DNA from: Planctomycetota bacterium
GTDB taxonomy: Bacteria; Planctomycetota; SZUA-567; H5-PLA8
Direction: 5' to 3'
NCBI GenBank assembly: GCA_045863855.1
Contig: BTVV01000167.1
Coordinates: forward strand, 1-11,388
Length of the DNA: 11,388 nt
The position numbers and the translations under genes are program-made. Shown one piece after another: positions 386 through 11,387 of this stretch. The number at the start of each line of letters is the position of its first letter. The stretch's first letter is position 1. The notes below the pieces were generated by a model that did not search any database, was not told the origin of the DNA, and worked only from the letters and a program-made list of their open reading frames with translations.

Positions 386-450
386 CGGGTGAGAACAAAA
401 CTTCGAAACGCCTAAACGCCCGGACGGTCCAGAGCAGTGTTTGGTTCGGC
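386..450 (-). other. Degenerate or partial integron attC-like site overlapping the GTPase 3' end
   Basis: The minus strand reads GCCGAAC-CAAAC-ACTGCTCT-GGACCG...GCGTTTAGGCGTTTCGAAGTTTTGTTCTCACCCG, i.e. an R''-like box, a 5-nt spacer and an L''-like box. The protein tail AEPNTALDRPGV resembles the AEPxxAxDR tails produced when cassette ORFs read into attC. No well-matched L'/R' half is present. Confidence 0.4.
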
Positions 451-1578
451 GTTCTGACTGATTAGGAACTCGCTCACTTCGCGCGCCGCCTTCTCGCAGT
501 CGTCTATTAGCTGCCCTCCAAAGTATCTGGTGAGTTGCCAACCAAGGTACGCGGCGACCGCTTGGCCAACGATGGGAATCCACTTGGAAACCGCTTTGGC
601 CGCGACCCTTGTCCCAAACCGTTTGAACAAGGCAATGATGGCCTCCTTGGCCAAGTATTCGACAACGGGCTTCGCAATCTTATGAACAATTTGCACTGCA
701 CCAGCAGTTGGGATGTGACGAGTCCTATATTCTAATTGATCGTCTCGTAGCCCATAAGCGGAAGTAACGAAGCGCGCCATTATCGCCAGCGTGCCGACAT
801 CGACACTAATGTCGAGTCCCGGTATGGGGTTCAAGCCATTGGCCGCTGACACGAGCGCGCATCGATCAACGATCTTCTCGACTGCTTCGCGCTTTTTTTT
901 GAGGAGATCCTCCGTCAAGGCGGCGACTACCATCACCGCCTTATCATGCTTCCATCCGGACAGCGAATTGGTGATGTCCTCGACCAGCTTGCCCAAGTCG
1001 TATCTGCACGGACCCTTCAGGGCCACTATGTAAGGATACAGGTCTTGGTCGACCTTCAGCTGCTTGCGGATGTCCTTCTCGATTAACTTACGGGCCTCAG
1101 CCTCGGAAGTCTCGTCGACCACCTGGTCAAAGTGCGTCCGCACGACGAAGACAGGACGGCCATTCTCCTTCCACAGTCTCCGGTACAGCTCTTCGTCCCC
1201 TTCCCGAATCCGTTTGTCGGAGATCAGGACGAAAACATCATATTTATCTTTGTCCAGCAGCCCCTGCTTCTCGATGTAGCACTCTCGTGGGTGATTCGGC
1301 GTCCCACAGCCAGGCAGATCCCAGAACACCAGCCCGGTGTCCCTGTACGGCACTCTCAGCGCCTGCTGAGTGATTTCCCCTGTGCCGCCCGTTTCCGCAA
1401 CTTTAGACCCGACGATGGCGTTCATAAGGCTGGACTTGCCTACACCCGTTTCACCGATGAGGGCGATGTGGACCTCGGCCTTACTGAACCCTTTCAGCTC
1501 CGCTTGCGCCTTTTCGCTCCGAGAGCTGAGTTCACGCTTCAGGTGTTCGTCGGGCGATGACATTTCGGGGCTCTCCAT
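412..1578 (-). CDS. Immunity-related GTPase (IRG/IIGP)-like P-loop GTPase with DUF697-like helical C-terminus
   Basis: G1 IALIGETGVGKSSLMNAI; G3 FWDLPGCGT; YDVFVLISDKR segment; G4-like FVVRTHFD; C-terminal KKKREAVEKIV...NPIPGLDISVD and KWIPIVGQAVAA hydrophobic helices. 388 aa. Confidence 0.85.
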   Translation of the reverse strand: MESPEMSSPDEHLKRELSSRSEKAQAELKGFSKAEVHIALIGETGVGKSSLMNAIVGSKVAETGGTGEITQQALRVPYRDTGLVFWDLPGCGTPNHPRECYIEKQGLLDKDKYDVFVLISDKRIREGDEELYRRLWKENGRPVFVVRTHFDQVVDETSEAEARKLIEKDIRKQLKVDQDLYPYIVALKGPCRYDLGKLVEDITNSLSGWKHDKAVMVVAALTEDLLKKKREAVEKIVDRCALVSAANGLNPIPGLDISVDVGTLAIMARFVTSAYGLRDDQLEYRTRHIPTAGAVQIVHKIAKPVVEYLAKEAIIALFKRFGTRVAAKAVSKWIPIVGQAVAAYLGWQLTRYFGGQLIDDCEKAAREVSEFLISQNAEPNTALDRPGV

Positions 1579-2977: not shown

Positions 2978-4096
2978 TATTACCCCGGCCGGTAAATGTC
3001 AGACAGGTTAGCCTGCGGCGTAACGAACGGATTTGTGCCGAAAGTATCTTTTTACCAGCTTCGGTTGTTTCTGCCGCCGGTGCAAGTATCCGCGAACTTG
3101 GCCGATCATCTGGTCCAGGTTTTCCGGGCGCTTCTTTCTCACCGCGTTGGTCTTCACGTCCTGGTTGAGCATTTCGTCGGGATTCAATTCCGGGCTTTAC
3201 GTCGGCAGAAAGAACAATTTCAGGCGGCCCCCTTGGCGGGCTACAAAGGCCTCCACCGCCTTGCTCCGATGCACCGCATGGCTGTCCACGATCAGAAAGA
3301 TCGGACGCTTCACCTGCTTGAGCAAACGGACCAAAAACTCCAAGAACACGTCCCGAGTGAACGCGCCCTTGAACACGCTGAAGTACAGGCGGCCCCGGTT
3401 GCTCAGCGCCGAGATCAGGTTGCACTTGAAGCGGTTTCCCGCCACCTCCACGACCGGCGTATGCCCGCGCAAGCCATACGTTCGGCCCAGTTGGTCATCC
3501 GAACGCAGGCCCATCTCGTCTTCCCAGAGGATGGCCGTGCCCCGGCGCGCCGCCTCGGCCCGTATCGCCGGATATCGTTCTTCCATCCAATGCCACACGG
3601 CCAGCGGATTCTGTTCGCGTGCCCGGCGCGCCGGCTTTTGCGGCGTGAAGTTAAGCTGCCTGAGCAGCCGGCCCACGCTCGAAAGCGCCAGCGTCACGTG
3701 GAAGCGCCGCTGGATCAGCGTGCGGACCGCTTCGCGCGTCCAAAGATAAAACGGCAGCTTCAACTGATCGGGATGACGGTCCAGAATGGCGCGCGCCACT
3801 TGCTGGCGCTGGCGGGGCTTGAGACGTCCGCTCCCCTTGGGTCGTCCGCGATGGGCGTAGGTGAGTGAGGCCGCGCCTGCGAGGCGGTACTGGGCCATCC
3901 AGAGATTCACCGTCTGCCGGGTAACCCCAAAGACCCGCGCCGCTTCGGTCTGGGTGGTCCCAGACAGCAAGGCGGCGACCACACGTTTGCGCAAATCGGA
4001 GAGGCTGGCCAGGCAGAGCCTTTTGGCGTTGGTGGGTTTCATGACCTCAAGTAGGCTGAACGGCCACTAGTCGGACATATTATGGCCTGATTAATA
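2978..4096 (-). mobile_element. IS630-family insertion sequence (~1.1 kb) with TA ends
   Basis: Imperfect terminal inverted repeats: left TATTACCCCGGCCGGTAAATGTCAGAC (from 2978) versus the reverse complement of the right end TATTAATCAGGCCATAATATGTCCGAC (ending 4096), 19/27 identical. Flanking TA dinucleotides (2978-2979, 4095-4096) fit IS630 target duplication. Encloses an IS630 transposase. Confidence 0.88.
3008..4042 (-). pseudogene. IS630-family transposase with an in-frame nonsense codon
   Basis: N-terminal HTH (QTEAARVFGVTRQTVNLW), winged HTH (LWTREAVRTLIQRRFHV...FTPQKP), DDE residues WEDE and IVDS. TAA at 3197-3199 replaces the Tyr of LPxYSPELNP. The frame continues SPELNPDEMLNQDVKTNAV...YFRHKSVRYAAG* to 3008. 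Confidence 0.9.
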
Positions 4097-4217: not shown

Positions 4218-4739
4218 CTACCACAGGCACATGCCGGTTTTCCTACCTGATCGAGGGGGCGCCTGAAGTGAGAGTTCGTTGACGAATTGAATGGCTGCCC
4301 ACGTGCCCTTGGCAGCCGCAGCGTCGAATTCCCGCATGACTTTTCGAATGTAATCGCGTCCGCCTCCGCTCACTAAGCCAAGCAACAATTTCTTTTTGGC
4401 TTGAGCTAATTCCTGTTGGCGCTTGTTCTTAGCCTCCGAGACGCGACGCTGCTCCGCCAAGGCCAAGCGCGCTTTACGCTCGTCTTTCCAGCGCCGTAAT
4501 AAGGCGGCGACCGCACCAGCCACGTAGGGATCCCGGCCGATCCAGAGCGATCGATGCACCCGAAATCCGGACGCCGAATCCAGCTCTCGGTATCGGAGTC
4601 TGTAATGGTCGCCGCGCCGCTGAACGATCCCGTTTTGCTCTAAAACAGCACGCAGATCAATGAGGTACGCCTTCAGCATGCGTTCCGACTGGGGCTGAAA
4701 CGGGTCGGGCGGGCCGATCTTGTCTCGATTTACAGGCAT
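4218..4739 (-). CDS. Hypothetical basic protein, possibly nucleic-acid binding
   Basis: Strong SD GGAGGT before ATG 4739. Segment HYRLRYRE...RVHRSLWIG resembles small beta-sheet DNA-binding modules of mobile elements, followed by a basic helix. 173 aa. Confidence 0.6.
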   Translation of the reverse strand: MPVNRDKIGPPDPFQPQSERMLKAYLIDLRAVLEQNGIVQRRGDHYRLRYRELDSASGFRVHRSLWIGRDPYVAGAVAALLRRWKDERKARLALAEQRRVSEAKNKRQQELAQAKKKLLLGLVSGGGRDYIRKVMREFDAAAAKGTWAAIQFVNELSLQAPPRSGRKTGMCLW

Positions 4740-5343
4740 TCGACACCTCCGGGGCACAGATCGTCGTTGGCTGAGGGGACTGGGGAGCGCGGGTTTCCGG
4801 CACAGGCGGTTTGTACGGCGCGGAGGGCACCGGATTCTGCGGCTGAAGCAGTGGCTTAAAGCCGGCGAGTTTCTGCACGTGCATAATTCGCGCGTATCGC
4901 TCACAGAGATCAACTAGGCGCATTTCCATGCGCAAAAGTTTGCCCAATTCCTCGATCACCGCAGGCGACGGACGGAGCGTTACGTCTTCCTGCCCATTGT
5001 ACTGCGCCATCTGCTCGGCGATCAGCAACTGCCGAGTGAGCAGGAGCCGCGCGTCGTACTCGATCATGCAGCGAAATACAGCATCAATGAGTATGGGTAA
5101 ACCTTTGTCGGCGTTGGACTTGATTACCTCTTCCAGCAGGCGTTTTTTCTCGTTCGCCGTCTCGACGCAGGACATCCATCTACTCGACAAAGCATCGACG
5201 AGCGCACCGACCTGGCCGCCGCGCGCGAGCGCCTTGAGCCATTCGTTTGTGGGCATTTGGCTGGGGCACGGGCGGCGCGGACGGCGATGCTCGCGCGCTT
5301 CTTCCTGATACTCCGCGTAACCGTCGGGCACGTCATCGTCCAT
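4657..5343 (-). CDS. Hypothetical alpha-helical protein with Pro-rich tail
   Basis: SD GAGGT before ATG 5343 (GAGGTGTCACATG). Long protein-like ORF of 228 aa that overlaps the downstream gene by 83 nt. Confidence 0.65.
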   Translation of the reverse strand: MDDDVPDGYAEYQEEAREHRRPRRPCPSQMPTNEWLKALARGGQVGALVDALSSRWMSCVETANEKKRLLEEVIKSNADKGLPILIDAVFRCMIEYDARLLLTRQLLIAEQMAQYNGQEDVTLRPSPAVIEELGKLLRMEMRLVDLCERYARIMHVQKLAGFKPLLQPQNPVPSAPYKPPVPETRAPQSPQPTTICAPEVSNACKSRQDRPARPVSAPVGTHAEGVPH

Positions 5344-5977
5344 GTGACACCTCGTTTCCATCGCTCGAATTATAGCGTCCATAATCCCCAAAAAATAGCC
5401 TCCAGGGCGACGATTTCGCGCGAATCCGGACCCTGCCGGAAGCTGCCGTCGCGTCCTGGGCGGGTGTCAGTGAACCGCCGCATTCTTCGTACGAGACGGA
5501 CCAGTTGAGCGGGCTTTCGGGAGGACTTCCGGAGCGAAATCCGTGTCGATGCGCTCGGCTCATTCGGCCTAAACGCTCCGGGCGTGCATGGTCACTCAGC
5601 TAGCCGAACGTAAGACGCCTTTTGAATTCCAGGTGGGTGCGGTGGGTATATGGGACTAAGCCCCGGATACAAACCAGCGCGTGTTAACGCTCCAAGCCGA
5701 AAGATCGACGCGCGGCTCGGAGCGCATCCCGCTCCAGGCGGAGGACGGCACGGCTCAATAATACGGCTCGCGTGCCCAGGGACTCCGCTCCCGCGCAAAT
5801 GCATAGGCGCGGCGCTGCGGATCTGGCACGCCCTGCTCGAAGCGCTTGTATTCAGGGTCCGAAATTTACCCACTGAGCGTCGTAGGCGCACTAGCGAATG
5901 CGCCCTCCTGGAGTTGTAGTTGAATAGATTGTCCACAGACCATGGGATTATGACGCAAATGTGAAGCGAATATAGAG

Positions 5978-6589
5978 GTGAAGAACAACCTTAATCTGAG
6001 TACTATGGGATCGCACTTCGGGGTGACTGGAATGGAATATGAATCCTTAGTGCTTCCTTGCAACGGCGCAGAGTTGATTGTTCTCGCGAACACGATTCTG
6101 GCTGAGCATGCACCGAATTCGGGTGTTGAAGATGTGAAAGATGTTGGTGACGCCGCGGTTGTTTACACGCTCGCAAAATACGGTTTTAGAGGCAAGAAGC
6201 TGAATTGGAAGCCTTACAGGGATGGATGGCACTATGCGCCGCCCGGAGCTCCAGGAAAATCCTCTTCCTACCATGGCCAACTCGAACCGGCTCCCGCGCT
6301 GTTCCTAGCTCATGTAGACCATGAGAATGTGGCAACTGTCCACTGGAATCCGATACTGACCATGAAGGAGCTGCGCCAGGTCTTGCAATATCACAAAATC
6401 CTCCCCCTACAAAGATGTGCAGAGACGGATGGAGGCGGGAAAGCAAGGAGGCGGCCAGCAACCGAAAGGACTCTTTCAAAACGACTCCGCAACCTTGATG
6501 CTAGTCTTGTTGACAAGGGCAGCCAAGGTAGAGGCATTGCTGGCAGCATACGTTTAAGGGAAGCGTTTCGGGTCCTCAATCTCCCTTGA
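5978..6589 (+). CDS. Hypothetical protein
   Basis: 203-aa ORF in a more AT-rich segment with globular-looking composition. Start is uncertain (GTG 5978, ATG 6005 or ATG 6032). No motif recognised. Confidence 0.55.
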   Translation: MKNNLNLSTMGSHFGVTGMEYESLVLPCNGAELIVLANTILAEHAPNSGVEDVKDVGDAAVVYTLAKYGFRGKKLNWKPYRDGWHYAPPGAPGKSSSYHGQLEPAPALFLAHVDHENVATVHWNPILTMKELRQVLQYHKILPLQRCAETDGGGKARRRPATERTLSKRLRNLDASLVDKGSQGRGIAGSIRLREAFRVLNLP

Positions 6590-6751
6590 TCTGCTTTTCG
6601 GCCTGCCAGCACCTCCACTCTTAATAATGTGCTTAAGCATAATTGTGGTCTTGCAACCTATTATCGCTGTGTTGGTTATGGCGCTGATCGCTCGTCTTTA
6701 ATAATCCCACATCCGTGACAACCTGATTTCTTTCCCTGAAACTGCAAAAGC

Positions 6752-6860
6752 AGGGGTGATCGGGATCAGCCCGATAGTTGTGCTCCGCAGTCGCGCTCGC
6801 CTACCCGGTCACCCCCGTTTAAAGCGGCGCGATTGCGGAGCCATCCTAAGGGGTGATCAA
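6752..6860 (+). promoter_or_regulatory. Structured 5' leader (candidate cis-regulatory RNA) of the HTH-RT operon
   Basis: 15-bp stem GCTCCGCAGTCGCGC (6782-6796)/GCGCGATTGCGGAGC (6827-6841) with one G-U pair. Loop segment GGTCACCCC (6807-6815) is complementary to the GGGGTGATC core of AGGGGTGATC, found at 6752-6761 and at 6849-6858 (the SD region). Confidence 0.5.
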
Positions 6861-7103
6861 ATGCAACAGACCAACAGTGTAATTGCTGTCCCTCCTAGAC
6901 CCGTCCGCCGCTCGGTCCACGCGGATCTGCTGATATCGTACAATCTACCTCCCAACATTCGAGTTGCCGCCCAGGCATGCGGGATCCCGTACTCGACCTT
7001 GGTGACGCGCATCGCGCGAGGCAAAGATCTACTGGCACCGGTCCGGAAATATGGTCGGAGCCCGGAGATCTTCCCAAATGTGCAACGGTTCGGTGGCGCG
7101 TAA
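6861..7103 (+). CDS. Small HTH DNA-binding protein
   Basis: SD-like AAGGGGTGA before ATG 6861. NIRVAAQACGIPYSTLVTRIARG fits an HTH pattern. 80 aa. Confidence 0.65.
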   Translation: MQQTNSVIAVPPRPVRRSVHADLLISYNLPPNIRVAAQACGIPYSTLVTRIARGKDLLAPVRKYGRSPEIFPNVQRFGGA

Positions 7104-7158
7104 TTCCAACGTCTGTTCTGTGCAATGAACAATAGGCGATCGATTGAGAGGAACAGTC

Positions 7159-7824
7159 ATGGATCTCAAACAAGAATCACGCCGTCGGAAAACGCTGTCG
7201 GTCACCCGAGCCTGGAAGATTGGCGGTCTCGCCAAGAAGGAGCAGAAGAAGGCCGGCTGGGGCAGCTCGGTTTTGGAGCAACTCGCAGCGCGGAGTTTTA
7301 AAGGAATCGATTGCGCCGCCATCCTGCTGCAGTTGGTGCGCCTGCACGATCGGTGGTCGATCAAGCAGGCCCAGTTGGCGGATCGGATCGGCGTCAAAGT
7401 TCGCGACCTGCCGAACTTGCTGGCATTCGACGCGAGCCCGGCTGAGCGGCGCGAGATGGAGACGAATCCCGCGATCCGCCGGCGCGTGGGGAAACGGCTC
7501 AAACTCCAGCGCCAGATTTTCGCGGAGATCGAGGCAGGTGAGTTGACCGGATTTCGCGTACGTGAGCGAATCTCCACCCTCCGGAAACAACACGCGAACC
7601 TGTGGCCAGTCGGCTCACAGAAAGTGCTCCGTCTACGGGGCCATCGAGCCGCCTGCGAGCAGATCGAGGCGTTCCGCAGCGCGATGAAGGCGTCAAAGTC
7701 CGCATTGTTGCGCGACGCCAGCAAGGTCAGCAAGGACGTGAAGAATGCGATTGGGGAGTTGATGTTCGAAATCGAGGGCAAACTGGAAGCATTGGTAGCA
7801 AAGGTGAAACTGCTGGACCAGTAG
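7159..7824 (+). CDS. DUF1016_N/YhcG N-terminal-like domain protein with C-terminal coiled coil, no nuclease domain
   Basis: SD GAGAGGA before ATG 7159. AWKIGGLAKKEQKKAGWGSSVLEQLAARSFKG resembles the YhcG-N pattern YWxIGxxI...WGxxVIxxLAxDL...KGFS. Helical C-terminus. 221 aa. Confidence 0.65.
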   Translation: MDLKQESRRRKTLSVTRAWKIGGLAKKEQKKAGWGSSVLEQLAARSFKGIDCAAILLQLVRLHDRWSIKQAQLADRIGVKVRDLPNLLAFDASPAERREMETNPAIRRRVGKRLKLQRQIFAEIEAGELTGFRVRERISTLRKQHANLWPVGSQKVLRLRGHRAACEQIEAFRSAMKASKSALLRDASKVSKDVKNAIGELMFEIEGKLEALVAKVKLLDQ

Positions 7825-7833
7825 TCGAAGTCA

Positions 7834-9381
7834 ATGGCCATTTCAATAACAAAGTCCGATCAAGGAACTGTTCAGATGTCTGATTTACCCGAAACTATCG
7901 GCGACACGAACGCCCTCCTGCGGCGTGAGATGATCGACCGGATCGTCGGGAGCCTCCAGATTGTCGCGGACACCGAGGTCCGGTGCACAGCTACGGACCT
8001 AAGTCCGCAGACGGAGCAACGTATCCTGCGAGTTGGTCCCGAAGTGTTTGCGACGGAGTTGGTCGAGCGGCTCTTTCGGCCCGGCTGGAAGCCGGAGCCA
8101 TGCGGGTTGGCAACGATCCCAAAATCCAAGGGCGGCCATAGGATCCTCACTCCGCCGTGGGATCAGGATCGCCTCTGGCAGTGGGCGCTGTACAACTTCA
8201 TCTACCCCAAGATCGAGCCGTTCCTGCATGCGTGTTGCTACGGGTTTGTCCGGGGTCGTTCGAATAATGATGCCGTCCGGGCGCTGGAGGATGCGATCCG
8301 TGAGCAGCCTTACGGCGTACTGATGCTGGCGGATGTGCGCCGTTGTTTCGCCAGCTTGCCCGTGGACGGCCTGCTGCGCTGCCTCTGGCCGGTCGTCAAT
8401 GACCCGATGGCGATGCTCTGGATCGAAGCCGCATTCCGGTCCAGGCCGCGCCATCCCCGGATCCGTGAGGTTCGTCGCGGGTTGGTCCTATCCGGCCAAG
8501 CTACGCCGGCAGACCTGGCGTACCTTGAAGCACTGCACCAAACTCGGCGCGGGATCCCGGAGGGCTCGGCGCTGTCGGCTGTCGCCTGCGTTCTGTACCT
8601 TCGGCCCCTGGTAGACTCGCTCGTCGCAGCGCTACCCGGGGCCACCGTCGTTCATTACGGCGACAACCTCGCCCTCTGGCTCCGGCCGGGCCAGGAGCGA
8701 ATCGCCGAATCCGTACTGCAGTCCGAATCGAAATCGTTAACCGTTAGAGTCGAGATCGAAACCGTGCTCGTCCCACCGTGTCACAGATCCGCACAATTCT
8801 TGGGAATCGAATTCGTTTGGTCGCAACACGAAATCCGTCTAATCGCGCCCGACAAAGTCATCGCCTGGATAATCGAAACCGTTAAGAGTCGAAAGTCGAA
8901 GCCGGAGTGGAACGTGGTCAAATGGTTCGTTAAATGGGTCTGGCCGAAACTCTACTACTATCGGGATACCGACCTAGGGCTGATCCGACGTACTCTGTGG
9001 GACGCCACGGAGGATTGGGCAACCATAGATAGGTACGCCGTGCGCGGACATTTCGCCACGCGATGGCTCGACACGGATGCGCGGTGGGACCGATACCTCA
9101 GTAGAGAGGTGCTAGAGGCTGACAAATTCGATTGGATTCGTCACTCACCCATCGGTCCTGAATCGTGGCACGAGACCGTAGCAGATAATCGAATCCGTAA
9201 GAGAGTCGAGTTCGAACAGATGATGGACAGGTTGTACGTGCACAGCATGTTCTGTATTGCACAGGGATCGCTCGCACAGAGCGACTCTGGTCTGGGGGGT
9301 AGCGATAGAGGTGGACTGGACGCGCTGCTGGGGCAGGCGCCTAGCTCGCTCCCGCTCGCTACGCCTGCCCCCAGCGCGTAA
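7834..9381 (+). CDS. Group II-like reverse transcriptase with non-canonical catalytic motifs (YGDN)
   Basis: RT1 IPKSKGGHRIL; RT2 DRLWQ; RT2a CYGFVRGRS; RT3 ADVRRCFASL; RT4 GIPEGSALS...LYL; RT5 HYGDN (YGDN codons at 8656-8667); RT7 FLGIEF; thumb-like region ending ...KLYYYR. Alternative start ATG 7876 with SD AAGGA. Confidence 0.88.
   Translation: MAISITKSDQGTVQMSDLPETIGDTNALLRREMIDRIVGSLQIVADTEVRCTATDLSPQTEQRILRVGPEVFATELVERLFRPGWKPEPCGLATIPKSKGGHRILTPPWDQDRLWQWALYNFIYPKIEPFLHACCYGFVRGRSNNDAVRALEDAIREQPYGVLMLADVRRCFASLPVDGLLRCLWPVVNDPMAMLWIEAAFRSRPRHPRIREVRRGLVLSGQATPADLAYLEALHQTRRGIPEGSALSAVACVLYLRPLVDSLVAALPGATVVHYGDNLALWLRPGQERIAESVLQSESKSLTVRVEIETVLVPPCHRSAQFLGIEFVWSQHEIRLIAPDKVIAWIIETVKSRKSKPEWNVVKWFVKWVWPKLYYYRDTDLGLIRRTLWDATEDWATIDRYAVRGHFATRWLDTDARWDRYLSREVLEADKFDWIRHSPIGPESWHETVADNRIRKRVEFEQMMDRLYVHSMFCIAQGSLAQSDSGLGGSDRGGLDALLGQAPSSLPLATPAPSA
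8704..9209 (+). repeat. Dispersed 11-bp direct repeats ATCGAAWYCGT within the RT 3' half
   Basis: Copies at 8727 (ATCGAAATCGT), 8755 (ATCGAAACCGT), 8806 (ATCGAATTCGT), 8872 (ATCGAAACCGT) and 9188 (ATCGAATCCGT), plus a partial copy at 8704. They fall in all three codon phases. Confidence 0.6.
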
Positions 9382-9421
9382 CCGTGGGGACGGGCCGGCC
9401 AGTACGGCGGCCCGTCCCACG
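9320..9421. other. Tandem GC-rich hairpins at the RT/helicase junction
   Basis: Hairpin 1: ACGCGCTG/CAGCGCGT plus GGGGCAGGCG/CGCCTGCCCC (9320-9379). Hairpin 2: CGTGGGGACGGGCCG/CGGCCCGTCCCACG (9383-9421), 14 bp with one bulge. Confidence 0.7.
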
Positions 9422-9453
9422 CTATTTCACTCATGCTAGGAGGGAGAGTTGCC

Positions 9454-10959
9454 ATGATCCCTGTGCGCCTAATTCACTCCGCTGTCCAGGACCGCCGGTT
9501 GACCTATGCGCTTATAAAGGGACGCGATTGGCCGTCGGTCGTCATAGGCAACGACCTAAACCGGGTCAATTACCTCGCTTCGGTGCTCAACGCCAGAGAT
9601 GCCATCCATCAGGATTGGCGTGCAATCAGCCTACGAGATGTGCCGAAACTCAAAGACACCGGAAAGGTCATAGGCCGCGAGGACTATTCCAGCCTGATTT
9701 CACTAAATCGAAAGACCCTGGTATGGAACTTGAAGCGCGCTGGCGCAACGGTAGGCCATGTTCCCAAGGCTGCGGCCTTCGTCGAAGTGCGACTATTAGG
9801 TGGCCGCGATTCCCACGAAAACAGAACCTCGATGGAGTGGGTCCACTGGAAGACAGAACAGACTCTTCAAGAACTGGGGATCCAATTCGTTGACGATCCC
9901 GACTACCTGTTTAACTCGCAAAACCTGCCGAGTCTAAAATCCAACACTGGAAATTATCAGTTGGTCGGGGTCGTATCATCCCCGCTGTCACGAGGCGAGG
10001 CCGCCACGCTCGCCGCGTACCTGGGTCATGAGGACTATACGGCGCCGCAGCGCGAGGTAACCGTGGTCGTGGAAGACCACTCGGCATGGCGCGAATTCGT
10101 GGACCTGTACGGCAAGAGTTTCCAAATTAGCGAGGAGGATCTGGCCAGCCACGGCAACGAGTGGCCGCGAACCACCGAACGGGTCCGGTTGGGCCGTGTC
10201 TCCTGGGAGCAGGGGCGCTGGATCAAGCACATGCGGCGGATCAAGAACCTGCTGATCCAGACGATCCGGGATGGCGGAAAGGCTGGAGATCTTCGCATCG
10301 TGACCGATACGGTCGATCGTGCCTATTATTTACGAACTGAACTCCATGCCATGGGTCTGCCGATCCAATGCTCCATGAGCGAACTGCTGCCGGCGAACCC
10401 GATTGCGCTAGACCTGATGTCCTTAGTGACCTTAGTCCGTAATCGGGAGCATATTCAATCGATCTGCCGCCTGGCGCTCCATTTGCCCAGCGAACCCGGG
10501 CTAGATGCATTGCGCGACTATTTTCGATCCAGCCCGTACGATAACGCCTTAAATCCCTATCAAGCGAATAAGCGCGCATTCGCCGCCCTGGAAGCCTGGC
10601 GCGAGATGGCAATGCAACCGGCTAGATCCCCTACTCAGATCCTGCAGCAGGCCGGGGAATGCTTGGCAGTGTGGCCAACACAGACACTCCAGGTCAGCGC
10701 TGAAATTCAACAGGCCCTCATGCATTGGTCACGCCAGTTCGAATCAACGGATGACATGATCAATGCATTTTGGCGACTTCGGGTGCTCATCAGCCCGTGG
10801 TCTGGCTACAAGCCCGAATCCGGCATCCGAGTCACAACCACGGTTCCGCCCGCTTGTCGCGACATCGTGGTTATGCTGAGCGCATTCACGCCCGAGAGGC
10901 ACCCTATTCAATTTGCAGGAGAGACTCCGGACGTTTATCACGCCATCGTTCAGGAGTAG
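9454..10959 (+). CDS. Degenerate, probably ATPase-dead UvrD/PcrA-like SF1 helicase-fold protein
   Basis: SD GGAGGGAG before ATG 9454. The segment IRDGGKAGDLRIVTDTVDRAYYLRTELHAMGLPIQ...NPIALDLMSLVTLVRN...RLALHLPSEPGL resembles the UvrD 2A/2B junction. No GxGKT Walker A. QFVDDPD, QLVGVV and SGIRVTT sit where motifs II, III and V are expected. Confidence 0.65.
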   Translation: MIPVRLIHSAVQDRRLTYALIKGRDWPSVVIGNDLNRVNYLASVLNARDAIHQDWRAISLRDVPKLKDTGKVIGREDYSSLISLNRKTLVWNLKRAGATVGHVPKAAAFVEVRLLGGRDSHENRTSMEWVHWKTEQTLQELGIQFVDDPDYLFNSQNLPSLKSNTGNYQLVGVVSSPLSRGEAATLAAYLGHEDYTAPQREVTVVVEDHSAWREFVDLYGKSFQISEEDLASHGNEWPRTTERVRLGRVSWEQGRWIKHMRRIKNLLIQTIRDGGKAGDLRIVTDTVDRAYYLRTELHAMGLPIQCSMSELLPANPIALDLMSLVTLVRNREHIQSICRLALHLPSEPGLDALRDYFRSSPYDNALNPYQANKRAFAALEAWREMAMQPARSPTQILQQAGECLAVWPTQTLQVSAEIQQALMHWSRQFESTDDMINAFWRLRVLISPWSGYKPESGIRVTTTVPPACRDIVVMLSAFTPERHPIQFAGETPDVYHAIVQE

Positions 10960-11105: not shown

Positions 11106-11387
11106 TCAGTCTGCCCCCGAATGCACCGGGATTTCCTCGACGATCTTTCCCGGCCGCTTACCCCCTTCCCTGGCGACGATCTCCACCTCGCACCCCAGGT
11201 CGGCGACGAAGCGCATGAGCCGGTAGACCGAAAAGCCCCTGAAGCGGCCCCTGAGCAGAGCGGAGACCTTGGGCTGGTCAATGCCCAGCGCCTTAGCGGC
11301 TTCCCCTTGGTTGAGTTTCCGCCGGGCGATTATTTTGGCGATCCGGTTGGCCAGCTTCGCCTTGGTCTGGTGCTCCTCCGCGTCGGC
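11106..11387 (-). CDS. XRE-family (HTH_37, HigA-like) antitoxin or regulator, 5'-partial
   Basis: Absent from the ORF track because the start lies outside the window. The minus frame reads ADAEEHQTKAKLANRIAKIIARRKLNQGEAAKALGIDQPKVSALLRGRFRGFSVYRLMRFVADLGCEVEIV...HSGAD*. Confidence 0.88.
   Translation of the reverse strand, partial: ADAEEHQTKAKLANRIAKIIARRKLNQGEAAKALGIDQPKVSALLRGRFRGFSVYRLMRFVADLGCEVEIVAREGGKRPGKIVEEIPVHSGAD

Follow-up and report, generated by a model that had tools for sequence, protein, structure and literature searches.

An apparently undescribed Planctomycetota operon pairing a group II intron-type reverse transcriptase that carries a Y-x-D-N motif with a predicted ATPase-dead UvrD-fold protein

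Domesticated bacterial reverse transcriptases (RTs), among them those of retrons, DRT2, DRT9 and G2L4, often have unexpected mechanisms and are useful as tools. Here we describe a four-gene operon built around such an RT on contig BTVV01000167.1 of a Planctomycetota bacterium (GCA_045863855.1); the stretch of DNA analysed, referred to below as the window, is 11,388 bases long and is the entire contig of a 6.9-Mb Planctomycetota genome bin. Among the closest described systems are the G2L RTs, which the available parts of one account define as intron-like RTs without intron RNA and regard as the most poorly understood of the intermediates linking mobile introns with functions in the host; those parts mention one multi-gene association, with queuosine genes, and none with a helicase (PMC8632793). 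One member of this group, G2L4, is presented in the accessible portion of another report as an RT of group II-like type that stands alone, has its motif altered to Y-I-D-D and acts in double-strand break repair (10.1101/2022.03.14.484287). In the separate UG/Abi group, UG35 is associated with a UvrD-like gene and has an N-terminal methyltransferase, according to the part of the source at hand (Mestre et al. 2022, PMC9226505). The locus described here is a real and apparently undescribed RT module that is best placed among the domesticated group-II-like RT systems, and its conserved core consists of the RT and a helicase-shaped partner, g4.

Between positions 6,750 and 10,960 of the window, four open reading frames (ORFs) lie co-oriented on the + strand with intact frames, accompanied by two candidate RNA structures:

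6764-6858, + strand: leader hairpin, long and imperfect, ending just 5' of the g1 start
6861-7103, + strand: g1, 80 amino acids (aa; 69 aa in relatives), putative helix-turn-helix (HTH) protein, likely a regulator
7159-7824, + strand: g2, 221 aa, predicted all-helical protein with a C-terminal helical hairpin
7834 or, more likely, 7876 to 9381, + strand: gene 3, the group-II-intron-like RT
9384-9422, + strand: RT-g4 hairpin, GC-rich, between the RT stop and the g4 start
9454-10959, + strand: g4, 501 aa, predicted UvrD/Rep/PcrA fold without ATPase motifs

Start codons were chosen from sequences resembling a ribosome-binding site (RBS) and from the N-termini of homologues. For the RT, the start at 7876 matches all six close homologues, and an upstream ATG at 7834 is also open. 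An initial annotation of this DNA, made from the sequence alone, had reported four co-oriented, tightly spaced genes with gaps of 55, 9 and 72 nucleotides (nt); the arrangement is indeed seen, and these gaps fit starts at 7159, 7834 and 9454, the middle gap becoming 51 nt if the RT starts at 7876. A longer version of g1, reading from a GTG at 6756, gains no support from the N-termini of its orthologues.

Several comparisons place the gene 3 product with the RTs of group II introns. It matches Pfam RVT_1 (E 3.1e-11), the CRISPR/group-II-type RT model PDLC01136 of PADLOC (E 9.8e-25, 85.5 bits) and the RT part of the PADLOC RT-Cas1 model PDLC02063 (8.1e-18); PADLOC-DB 2.0.0 (2023) was used throughout, and our comparison with defence models covers models up to that date. 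The closest solved structure by sequence is the GsI-IIC group II intron RT (6ar1, E 1e-10). The best of the UG models was UG17 (E 2.1e-6, 24.9 bits), the Drt2 model gave E 0.0031, and retron RT models were marginal (NF038233, E 0.062; RT_III-A, E 0.0054). Against the NCBIfam group II intron RT/maturase model TIGR04416 the protein scored 89.3 bits, the cut-off being 300, and Pfam searches at E up to 0.01 reported only RVT_1 and no maturase GIIM domain. A tblastn search of plasmids with the RT yielded 326 records, all below 60% identity, of which 0/326 cover 80% of the protein; the top annotated matches are intron RT/maturases, 26-29% identical over residues ~60-335. Since none of the plasmid matches spans the protein and the top ones stop at about residue 335, its last third (approximately residues 340-501) matches nothing.

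The active site combines conservation with one substitution. When aligned to GsI-IIC, the RT retains the motif A aspartate (ADV paired with MDL) and reads YGDN, within HYGDN, where GsI-IIC has YADD; the YGDN RT of the initial annotation is thus real. Residues D167, H274, G276, D277 and N278 are invariant in 7/7 RTs (the window protein and six homologues at 57-91% identity), and the motifs IPK..GG.R, GF.RGRS and FLG are likewise invariant in all seven. Two of the three catalytic carboxylates are therefore kept, namely D167 of motif A and the first motif C aspartate, D277, while the second is replaced by asparagine. At motif C, a metagenomic RT with only 31% identity to the window protein reads HYADN, and because Y-x-D-N is shared with so divergent a protein, the change from aspartate to asparagine is an old, fixed feature of the family and not a sign of decay. 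Some viral RNA polymerases work with G-D-N as their motif C, and mutants of other polymerases at the second aspartate stay active with altered metal use. Catalytic death of the RT is thus unproven, and a loss of polymerisation cannot be read from sequence. On the strength of these alignments, we identify the protein as a domesticated group-II-intron-type RT with a Y-x-D-N active-site motif.

The partner protein g4 was recognised through its predicted structure. It has no match in Pfam, NCBIfam, PHROG or PADLOC, the UvrD models of Pfam also miss its family, and a sequence-profile search of the PDB gave no meaningful match; a HMMER search of 1.84 billion representative proteins found eight relatives at E up to 0.001. 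We modelled g4 with AlphaFold2 from an 11-row alignment (mean predicted local distance difference test score, pLDDT, 78.8; predicted template modelling score, pTM, 0.79). The top Foldseek match of the model is UvrD (2is2_A, E 1.5e-11, probability 1.00, template modelling (TM) score 0.46), with TM-scores of up to 0.50 for 2is6_B, and further matches include PcrA, Rep, AdnAB and chains of AddAB and RecBCD entries. The AddAB chain B and RecBCD chains matched at E 5e-11 to 4e-5, and we take them to be AddB and RecC, which are naturally ATPase-dead. Alignment of the model to structures of the UvrD/Rep/PcrA type with VIA-align gave Z-scores of 12.4-14.1; against 2is1_A, for example, residues 10-454 of the model lie on UvrD 23-542 (Z 12.6, root-mean-square deviation 5.0, 341 residues). 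The language-model neighbours of g4 are UvrD-family clusters as well. A profile alignment of the g4 family with E. coli UvrD (hhalign) was weak (E 0.0054, probability 6.7%) and co-linear with the structural alignment over g4 residues 250-452 only. Together, these comparisons indicate two RecA-like domains with 1B/2B insertions, the fold of superfamily 1A helicases such as UvrD, Rep and PcrA.

The motor appears to be missing from this fold. Walker A (G-x4-G-K-[ST]) occurs in 0/11 members of the g4 family, the strand corresponding to motif II reads VVSS, VISD, VVSG, VLSR and the like with no conserved D-E of a Walker B motif, and at the place where a P-loop could be accommodated, the model shows a strand-to-helix turn of no more than a few residues. 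By its modelled fold and its motifs, g4 is therefore best described as an ATPase-dead UvrD-fold protein, as had been proposed. The accompanying proposal that two full-length genes had both lost their catalytic motifs holds for g4 and does not extend to the RT, which keeps D167 and D277 and differs only in the second aspartate. In one g4 relative (P0014, 648 aa), an RVT_3/RNase H domain is fused to the C-terminal end (residues 517-642, E 2.1e-22), which argues that proteins of this kind may still handle RNA:DNA hybrids; this relative sits on an NCBI contig of 2723 bases. A complex prediction for the RT (residues 15-470) and g4 (8-508) from separate alignments returned a score of 0.00 (mark, 0.32), a value that speaks neither for nor against binding.

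To assess whether the four genes form a unit, we can draw on related loci. All four occur in the same order and orientation in two other Planctomycetota bins (loci L003 and L004), which makes the gene set a conserved unit. Amino acid identities to the window proteins are 86% (g1), 72% (g2), 91% (RT) and 95% (g4) in L003, and 50%, 63%, 61% and 58% in L004. On four more assemblies, RT homologues are tied to homologues of g4 or g2 through contigs of equal size (10376, 5208, 14063 and 6147 bases). Ratios of non-synonymous to synonymous substitution rates (dN/dS, Nei-Gojobori) are 0.14-0.27 for g1, 0.27-0.32 for g2, 0.25-0.33 for the RT and 0.20-0.22 for g4. All four genes are thus under purifying selection, across up to about 40% protein divergence, and the dN/dS check that the initial annotation had called for came out in favour of functional genes (0.14-0.33 overall). 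Together with the intact frames and the fixed Y-x-D-N, this supports its view that the genes were repurposed and are not decaying.

The pairing of RT and g4 extends further than the complete operon. We scanned JGI metagenomes with degenerate patterns based on distant g4 relatives and recovered four loci (L018-L021); the same scan with the window g4 alone recovered none. The L018 sequence contains the C-terminus of an RT and, immediately behind it, a g4 homologue. The RT of L021 is 99% identical to that of L018 over 171 aa and is followed by an insertion sequence (IS) of the rve type and then by the start of g4; this is the RT mentioned above that reads HYADN and shares 31% identity with the window protein. 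This IS (L021 1433-2956, - strand) lies inserted between the two genes, which are adjacent in the near-identical L018. In L020, fragments of g4 adjoin an AAA_25 gene and a tyrosine integrase, and L019 begins too near g4 to show upstream genes. Because the order RT then g4 is also found in a distant lineage, the pair predates the split of lineages whose proteins are only 24-33% identical, and it is this pair that forms the conserved core of the operon.

The module is nevertheless rare. A g4 profile detected the locus in 3/401 genomes sampled across the phylum, all from one family; within that family 2/7 other genomes carry it, and a genome of the same genus (88% complete) has no match. The genome from which the window comes holds one copy. 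Relatives of g4 or the RT were absent from the viral contigs of IMG/VR, and g4 had no match among PLSDB plasmids and GenBank phages. Contigs from two other studies (sediment; aquaculture) contain nearly identical DNA. Short contigs of a metatranscriptomic library match the RT, its junction with g4 and g4 itself at 90-99% identity; this hints weakly at transcription, though carried-over DNA could also account for it. One metatranscriptomic run (X20) and one probable-DNA run (X19) leave many parts of the operon uncovered, which proves nothing.

The candidate cis elements differ in how far they are conserved. The hairpin between the RT and g4 (9384-9422) is also present in L003, and in L004 with one compensatory exchange of a C:G for an A:U pair; L018 also has a stem here, of 16 bp (z -3.24), but made from unrelated sequence. 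A stable hairpin is thus found in 4/4 loci examined (window, L003, L004 and L018), with z -4.96 in L004 and, for segments of 101 nt, -1.93 in the window and -1.20 in L003. It could be an attenuator or stabiliser that sets the ratio of RT to g4, or an RNA element used by the RT. The leader hairpin pairs with the RBS-like AAGGGG and is strong in the window (z -4.4 and -5.17; 0/200 shuffles fold as well), in agreement with the structured leader first noticed, although it is not conserved: the corresponding values in L003 (z +0.74) and L004 (z -1.38) are not significant and the sequences do not align. Because it is not conserved in either locus, the leader hairpin probably represents local regulation and not a core part of the system. 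Hairpins had been noted at the gene junctions in general, and only the one between RT and g4 bears this out, since shuffled sequences fold just as well as the junctions of g1 with g2 (z 0.00) and of g2 with the RT (z -0.14). The internal DNA repeats of the initial annotation dissolve into short two-copy matches (14-25 nt, 76-93% identity) at the level of chance. With Rfam 15 and permissive filters, no family was detected anywhere in the window at E up to 1, including group II intron and retron RNAs; a tRNA scan found none, and promoter and terminator scans of the window stayed at chance level.

The two small genes are harder to place. Orthologues of g1 in the window, L003 and L004 share a core of about 69 aa, and HTH_psq matches are weak and consistent in 3/3 (E 0.0045-0.015), all of them below cut-off; the HTH assigned to g1 is accordingly plausible from its sequence, at a strength short of any model threshold. 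For g2, seven homologues are known (59-72% identity). Its model is all-helical with a long C-terminal helical hairpin (pLDDT 78.4), and Foldseek returned nothing significant (best E 1.2; a Noc/ParB-like row at probability 0.57). A wide VIA-align search recovered only the generic C-terminal hairpin (residues 150-221; Z up to 10, below the trusted level for helical proteins), and a PDB sequence-profile search gave no meaningful match. The proposed resemblance of g2 to the N-terminal domain of YhcG was not upheld: DUF1016_N (PF17761) matches in 3/7 members over 30 residues at E 0.071, with 13.6 bits against a cut-off of 32.8, and hhalign of the g2 family with E. coli YhcG is not significant (E 0.18, probability 0.3%). 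HTH_ParB is likewise sub-threshold (E 0.096). A cluster labelled DUF1016/ParB HTH lies among the language-model neighbours of g2 (score 0.92; PF17761 on 23% of its members) and serves as a lead only; the neighbours are mostly viral clusters. In PADLOC, g2 gave only weak PDC-S02 matches (E ~1e-3).

We next consider the DNA in which the operon is embedded. The flanks differ among the window, L003 and L004 except for one hypothetical gene (window 4218-4913, L003 1530-2171 and L004 481-1014, all on the - strand; 33-44% identity), which has no Pfam match and lies upstream of the operon, 1.8 kb away in the window and 7-8 kb away in L003 and L004. It may be a linked fifth gene or the marker of a common element. 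Mobile genes in the flanks comprise an IS630 transposase in the window and a resolvase and a DDE transposase in L003. In L004 (2207-7691), a DUF932 gene, a gene combining WGR with an ATP-dependent-ligase-like region, and a PDDEXK_1/Cas4-like nuclease gene lie upstream, and an MCM-like AAA gene further downstream; the WGR/ligase-like gene also matches PADLOC WGR_XIII and HEAT-ARM_XIII. The flanks are rich in sequence that is repeated over many contigs of the same genome, forming mosaics of repeated and IS DNA. Comparison with an empty site did not define element ends: the 20 kb of L003, together with 20 kb on each side, were compared with a genome of the same genus (G313), in which the region scatters over many places at 65-84% identity without synteny.

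Other features of the window and its relatives can be listed alongside. The IS630-family transposase (3197-4042, - strand; DDE_3 and HTH) has an ORF that stops within the DDE domain (profile 2-114 of 146); in two DNA runs its region has 4-5 times the contig depth of its flanks, and one variant skips 3195-3726. The raised depth and the skipping variant point to an IS630 that is multi-copy and possibly broken or variant here. At 412-1578 (- strand) lies a 388-aa GTPase of the IIGP/dynamin kind (PF05049, E 1.3e-29) with weak PADLOC matches to LeoA (1.8e-10) and LeoBC (4.8e-8). Directly upstream of the leader and on the same strand, a 203-aa ORF (5978-6589, + strand) has a G+C content of 0.50-0.53, compared with 0.57-0.63 in the operon; searches of Pfam, NCBIfam, PHROG and PADLOC assign it to no family, and L003 and L004 lack a counterpart. 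A 119-bp island at 5790-5908 is 93% identical to L003 7420-7538 amid otherwise unrelated upstream regions, and has no tRNA or Rfam match; beside it, L003 ~7295-7405 also matches another contig of the window's genome and the same-genus genome. Just downstream of g4, an XRE-type HTH_37 gene (window 11106-11387, - strand; L003 13246-13707) is 97% identical between the two loci and absent from this place in L004; the same-genus genome has copies elsewhere, at two sites (83-84% identity), and in the window's genome the sequence runs on into another contig (C271).

How might these parts work together? In the mechanism that we propose, g1 would act as a small HTH regulator of the operon, and the RT would bind a template and probably make, or at least hold, a short RNA:DNA product from the locus transcript, with the RT-g4 hairpin as the candidate cis element. 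The g4 protein would not translocate and would instead serve as a passive scaffold binding single strands or hybrids, much as the dead-helicase subunits of RecBCD and AddAB do, while g2 could be a helical DNA-binding or oligomerising adaptor. As to the role, we favour, at slightly less than even confidence, a self-contained accessory operon engaged in conflict with phages or other mobile DNA, that is, one of a defence type, because few genomes have the module, close relatives carry it only patchily, and it is located within variable, IS-rich DNA. More tentatively, the locus would represent a new class of RT system, in which a Y-x-D-N RT makes complementary DNA or a hybrid that is read by a RecC-like dead UvrD scaffold, giving a nucleoprotein sensor or effector unlike retrons, DRTs, diversity-generating retroelements (DGRs) or CRISPR RTs; we consider this possible, though on the unlikely side. 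The gene content, conservation, selection, folds, motif losses and hairpin are observed; that the RT polymerises, that the proteins associate physically, what serves as template and that the operon acts in defence are points that we infer.

Several observations weigh against this picture. The second aspartate of motif C is replaced in the RT, and where GsI-IIC has 'neeKs' the RT has 'eieTv', so that a lysine that is presumably the general acid of motif D becomes threonine; on these alignments the RT may be inactive or very slow. The hairpin evidence comes from four DNA loci and a single compensatory pair, with modest z values in the window and L003 (-1.93 and -1.20), and besides this hairpin there is no conserved non-coding RNA (Rfam at E up to 1; leader not conserved). 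None of the four genes has an effector-like domain, such as a nuclease, TIR or membrane protein, in Pfam, NCBIfam, PHROG or PADLOC. Nor is the neighbourhood enriched in known defence genes, as only 2/33 flanking ORFs scanned in the related loci match PADLOC, both generically (WGR, Cas4-like), and the mobile-element genes near the L003, L004 and L020 loci fit element maintenance equally well.

The first alternative concerns the RT itself, and could be combined with either a defence or an element role: the protein may be a catalytically inactive, RNA-binding scaffold that forms a non-enzymatic ribonucleoprotein sensor with the dead helicase. Intron RTs do have maturase-only descendants, MatK and Prp8, and such a reading would account for a motif C substitution present in 7/7 RTs and in the 31%-identical lineage, for threonine in place of the 'neeKs' lysine, and for a partner that also lacks enzymatic motifs. 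Set against this are the invariance of two of the three catalytic carboxylates and of the nucleotide-binding motifs, the existence of working G-D-N polymerases and of active second-aspartate mutants, and the RNase H domain fused to a g4 relative, which is hard to explain without an RNA:DNA hybrid. We regard an inactive scaffold as unlikely on balance, if a real contender.

A second alternative assigns the operon to the replication, maintenance or transfer of an integrated mobile element, with the RT and dead helicase acting in priming, end protection or copy control and g2 being ParB-like. Mobile-element genes occur in all contexts (IS630 in the window, and those of L003, L004 and L020), L003 and L004 carry homologues of the gene at window 4218-4913, 7-8 kb ahead of the operon, and g2 offers weak HTH_ParB hints and mostly viral language-model neighbours. 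Yet the flanks of the three loci are otherwise unshared, which suggests that the four genes move as a cassette and not with one element backbone, and no match was found in IMG/VR, PLSDB or GenBank phages, nor could element ends be defined. This role strikes us as rather doubtful, and as less likely than defence, the other option named in the initial annotation.

A third possibility is host DNA repair after the manner of G2L4, by microhomology-mediated end joining, with a dead helicase that binds DNA ends. It has a precedent in the double-strand break repair attributed to G2L4 in the portion seen of that report (10.1101/2022.03.14.484287), g4 resembles subunits of end-processing helicase-nucleases, and the operon of L004 is preceded by a ligase-like gene and a PD-(D/E)XK nuclease. 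However, G2L4 works alone, the ligase and nuclease neighbours are confined to that one locus, the surroundings are mobile, and the distribution is patchy (3/401 genomes of the phylum, 2/7 others of the family), which together make a repair role quite improbable. Some weight is left for a role other than defence, element service or repair. Lastly, a decaying group II intron or set of pseudogenes, to which the annotated RT relatives might point (intron RT/maturases, 26-29% identity), is refuted for practical purposes by the lack of intron RNA at E up to 1, the lack of GIIM, the TIGR04416 score of 89 against 300, and four intact frames with dN/dS of 0.14-0.33.

Under the favoured reading of a defence-type operon as well as under its rivals, the locus offers a compact, conserved case of an intron-type RT with a fixed aspartate-to-asparagine change in its catalytic triad. 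Its dedicated partner would be a helicase fold stripped of its motor, and the RNase H domain that nature has fused to a g4 relative gives a hint of the substrate. An active RT would establish Y-x-D-N as a functional RT motif, whereas an inactive one would be a bacterial instance of the RT fold serving as nothing but a scaffold.

Finally, we compared the locus with described systems, for which the initial annotation had found no counterpart, and indeed no intron RNA, cas1 gene or array, template and variable repeats or retron RNA was found and none of the described systems that we compared was matched. Relative to a mobile group II intron, the ribozyme RNA that would flank the RT is absent (Rfam, E up to 1), the RT is instead flanked at 9-72 nt by conserved protein genes, and it falls short of the RT/maturase equivalog model and lacks a detectable maturase domain. 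The ORFs of the window encode no Cas1 domain and a tandem repeat array is missing as well, which sets the locus apart from CRISPR RTs. Retron models are marginal and Rfam shows no retron RNA, leaving room for a non-coding RNA outside the models, and, with regard to a DGR, direct repeats reach at most 25 nt (76% identity) and no Avd-like match was seen. Among the UG/Abi defence RTs (DRT1-9, AbiA/K/P2, UG35), the best UG score is 24.9 bits, against 85.5 bits for the group-II/CRISPR-type model. The PADLOC check that had been suggested gave no system match for the locus; its best model matches for the RT are of the group-II/CRISPR type, and g4 and g1 match no model. Thus, the locus is not a group II intron, a CRISPR RT, a DGR, a retron or a PADLOC-modelled DRT/Abi system. 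In the open full-text literature, to which our search was directed and which excludes subscription-only papers and preprint supplements, we found no account of a system of RT and UvrD-fold protein or of a YGDN or YADN RT.

The nearest parallels to individual parts lie elsewhere. The g4 protein resembles RecC and AddB in having a UvrD-like fold without a working ATP site; unlike in RecBCD and AddAB, there is no nuclease domain and no motor of the RecB/AddA type, and the partner is an RT. GajB of Gabija, a UvrD-like defence protein, gave weaker Foldseek matches to g4 (8sm3_B, E 8.3e-5; 8iud, 2.2e-4), with low TM-scores (0.18-0.19) and no PADLOC GajB match; GajB itself retains the site for nucleotide binding and has the nuclease GajA as its partner. 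UG35 is similar in that an RT gene is associated with a UvrD-like protein, as far as the consulted part of the source describes it (PMC9226505), whereas the window RT is of another lineage and has no methyltransferase, and its g4 has no PADLOC match and has lost the ATPase motifs. The RT fits the G2L lineage, as its closest relatives are group II intron RTs and no intron RNA accompanies it, although its C-terminal third (~340-501) matches nothing. With G2L4 of Pseudomonas aeruginosa, as portrayed in the parts of the sources available (PMC8632793; 10.1101/2022.03.14.484287), it shares descent from introns without intron RNA, an altered Y-x-D-D and a domesticated, non-mobile state. In contrast to G2L4, the change here strikes the catalytic aspartate (Y-G-D-N or Y-A-D-N) and not the x position, and the RT belongs to a conserved four-gene operon together with a predicted dead UvrD-fold partner.

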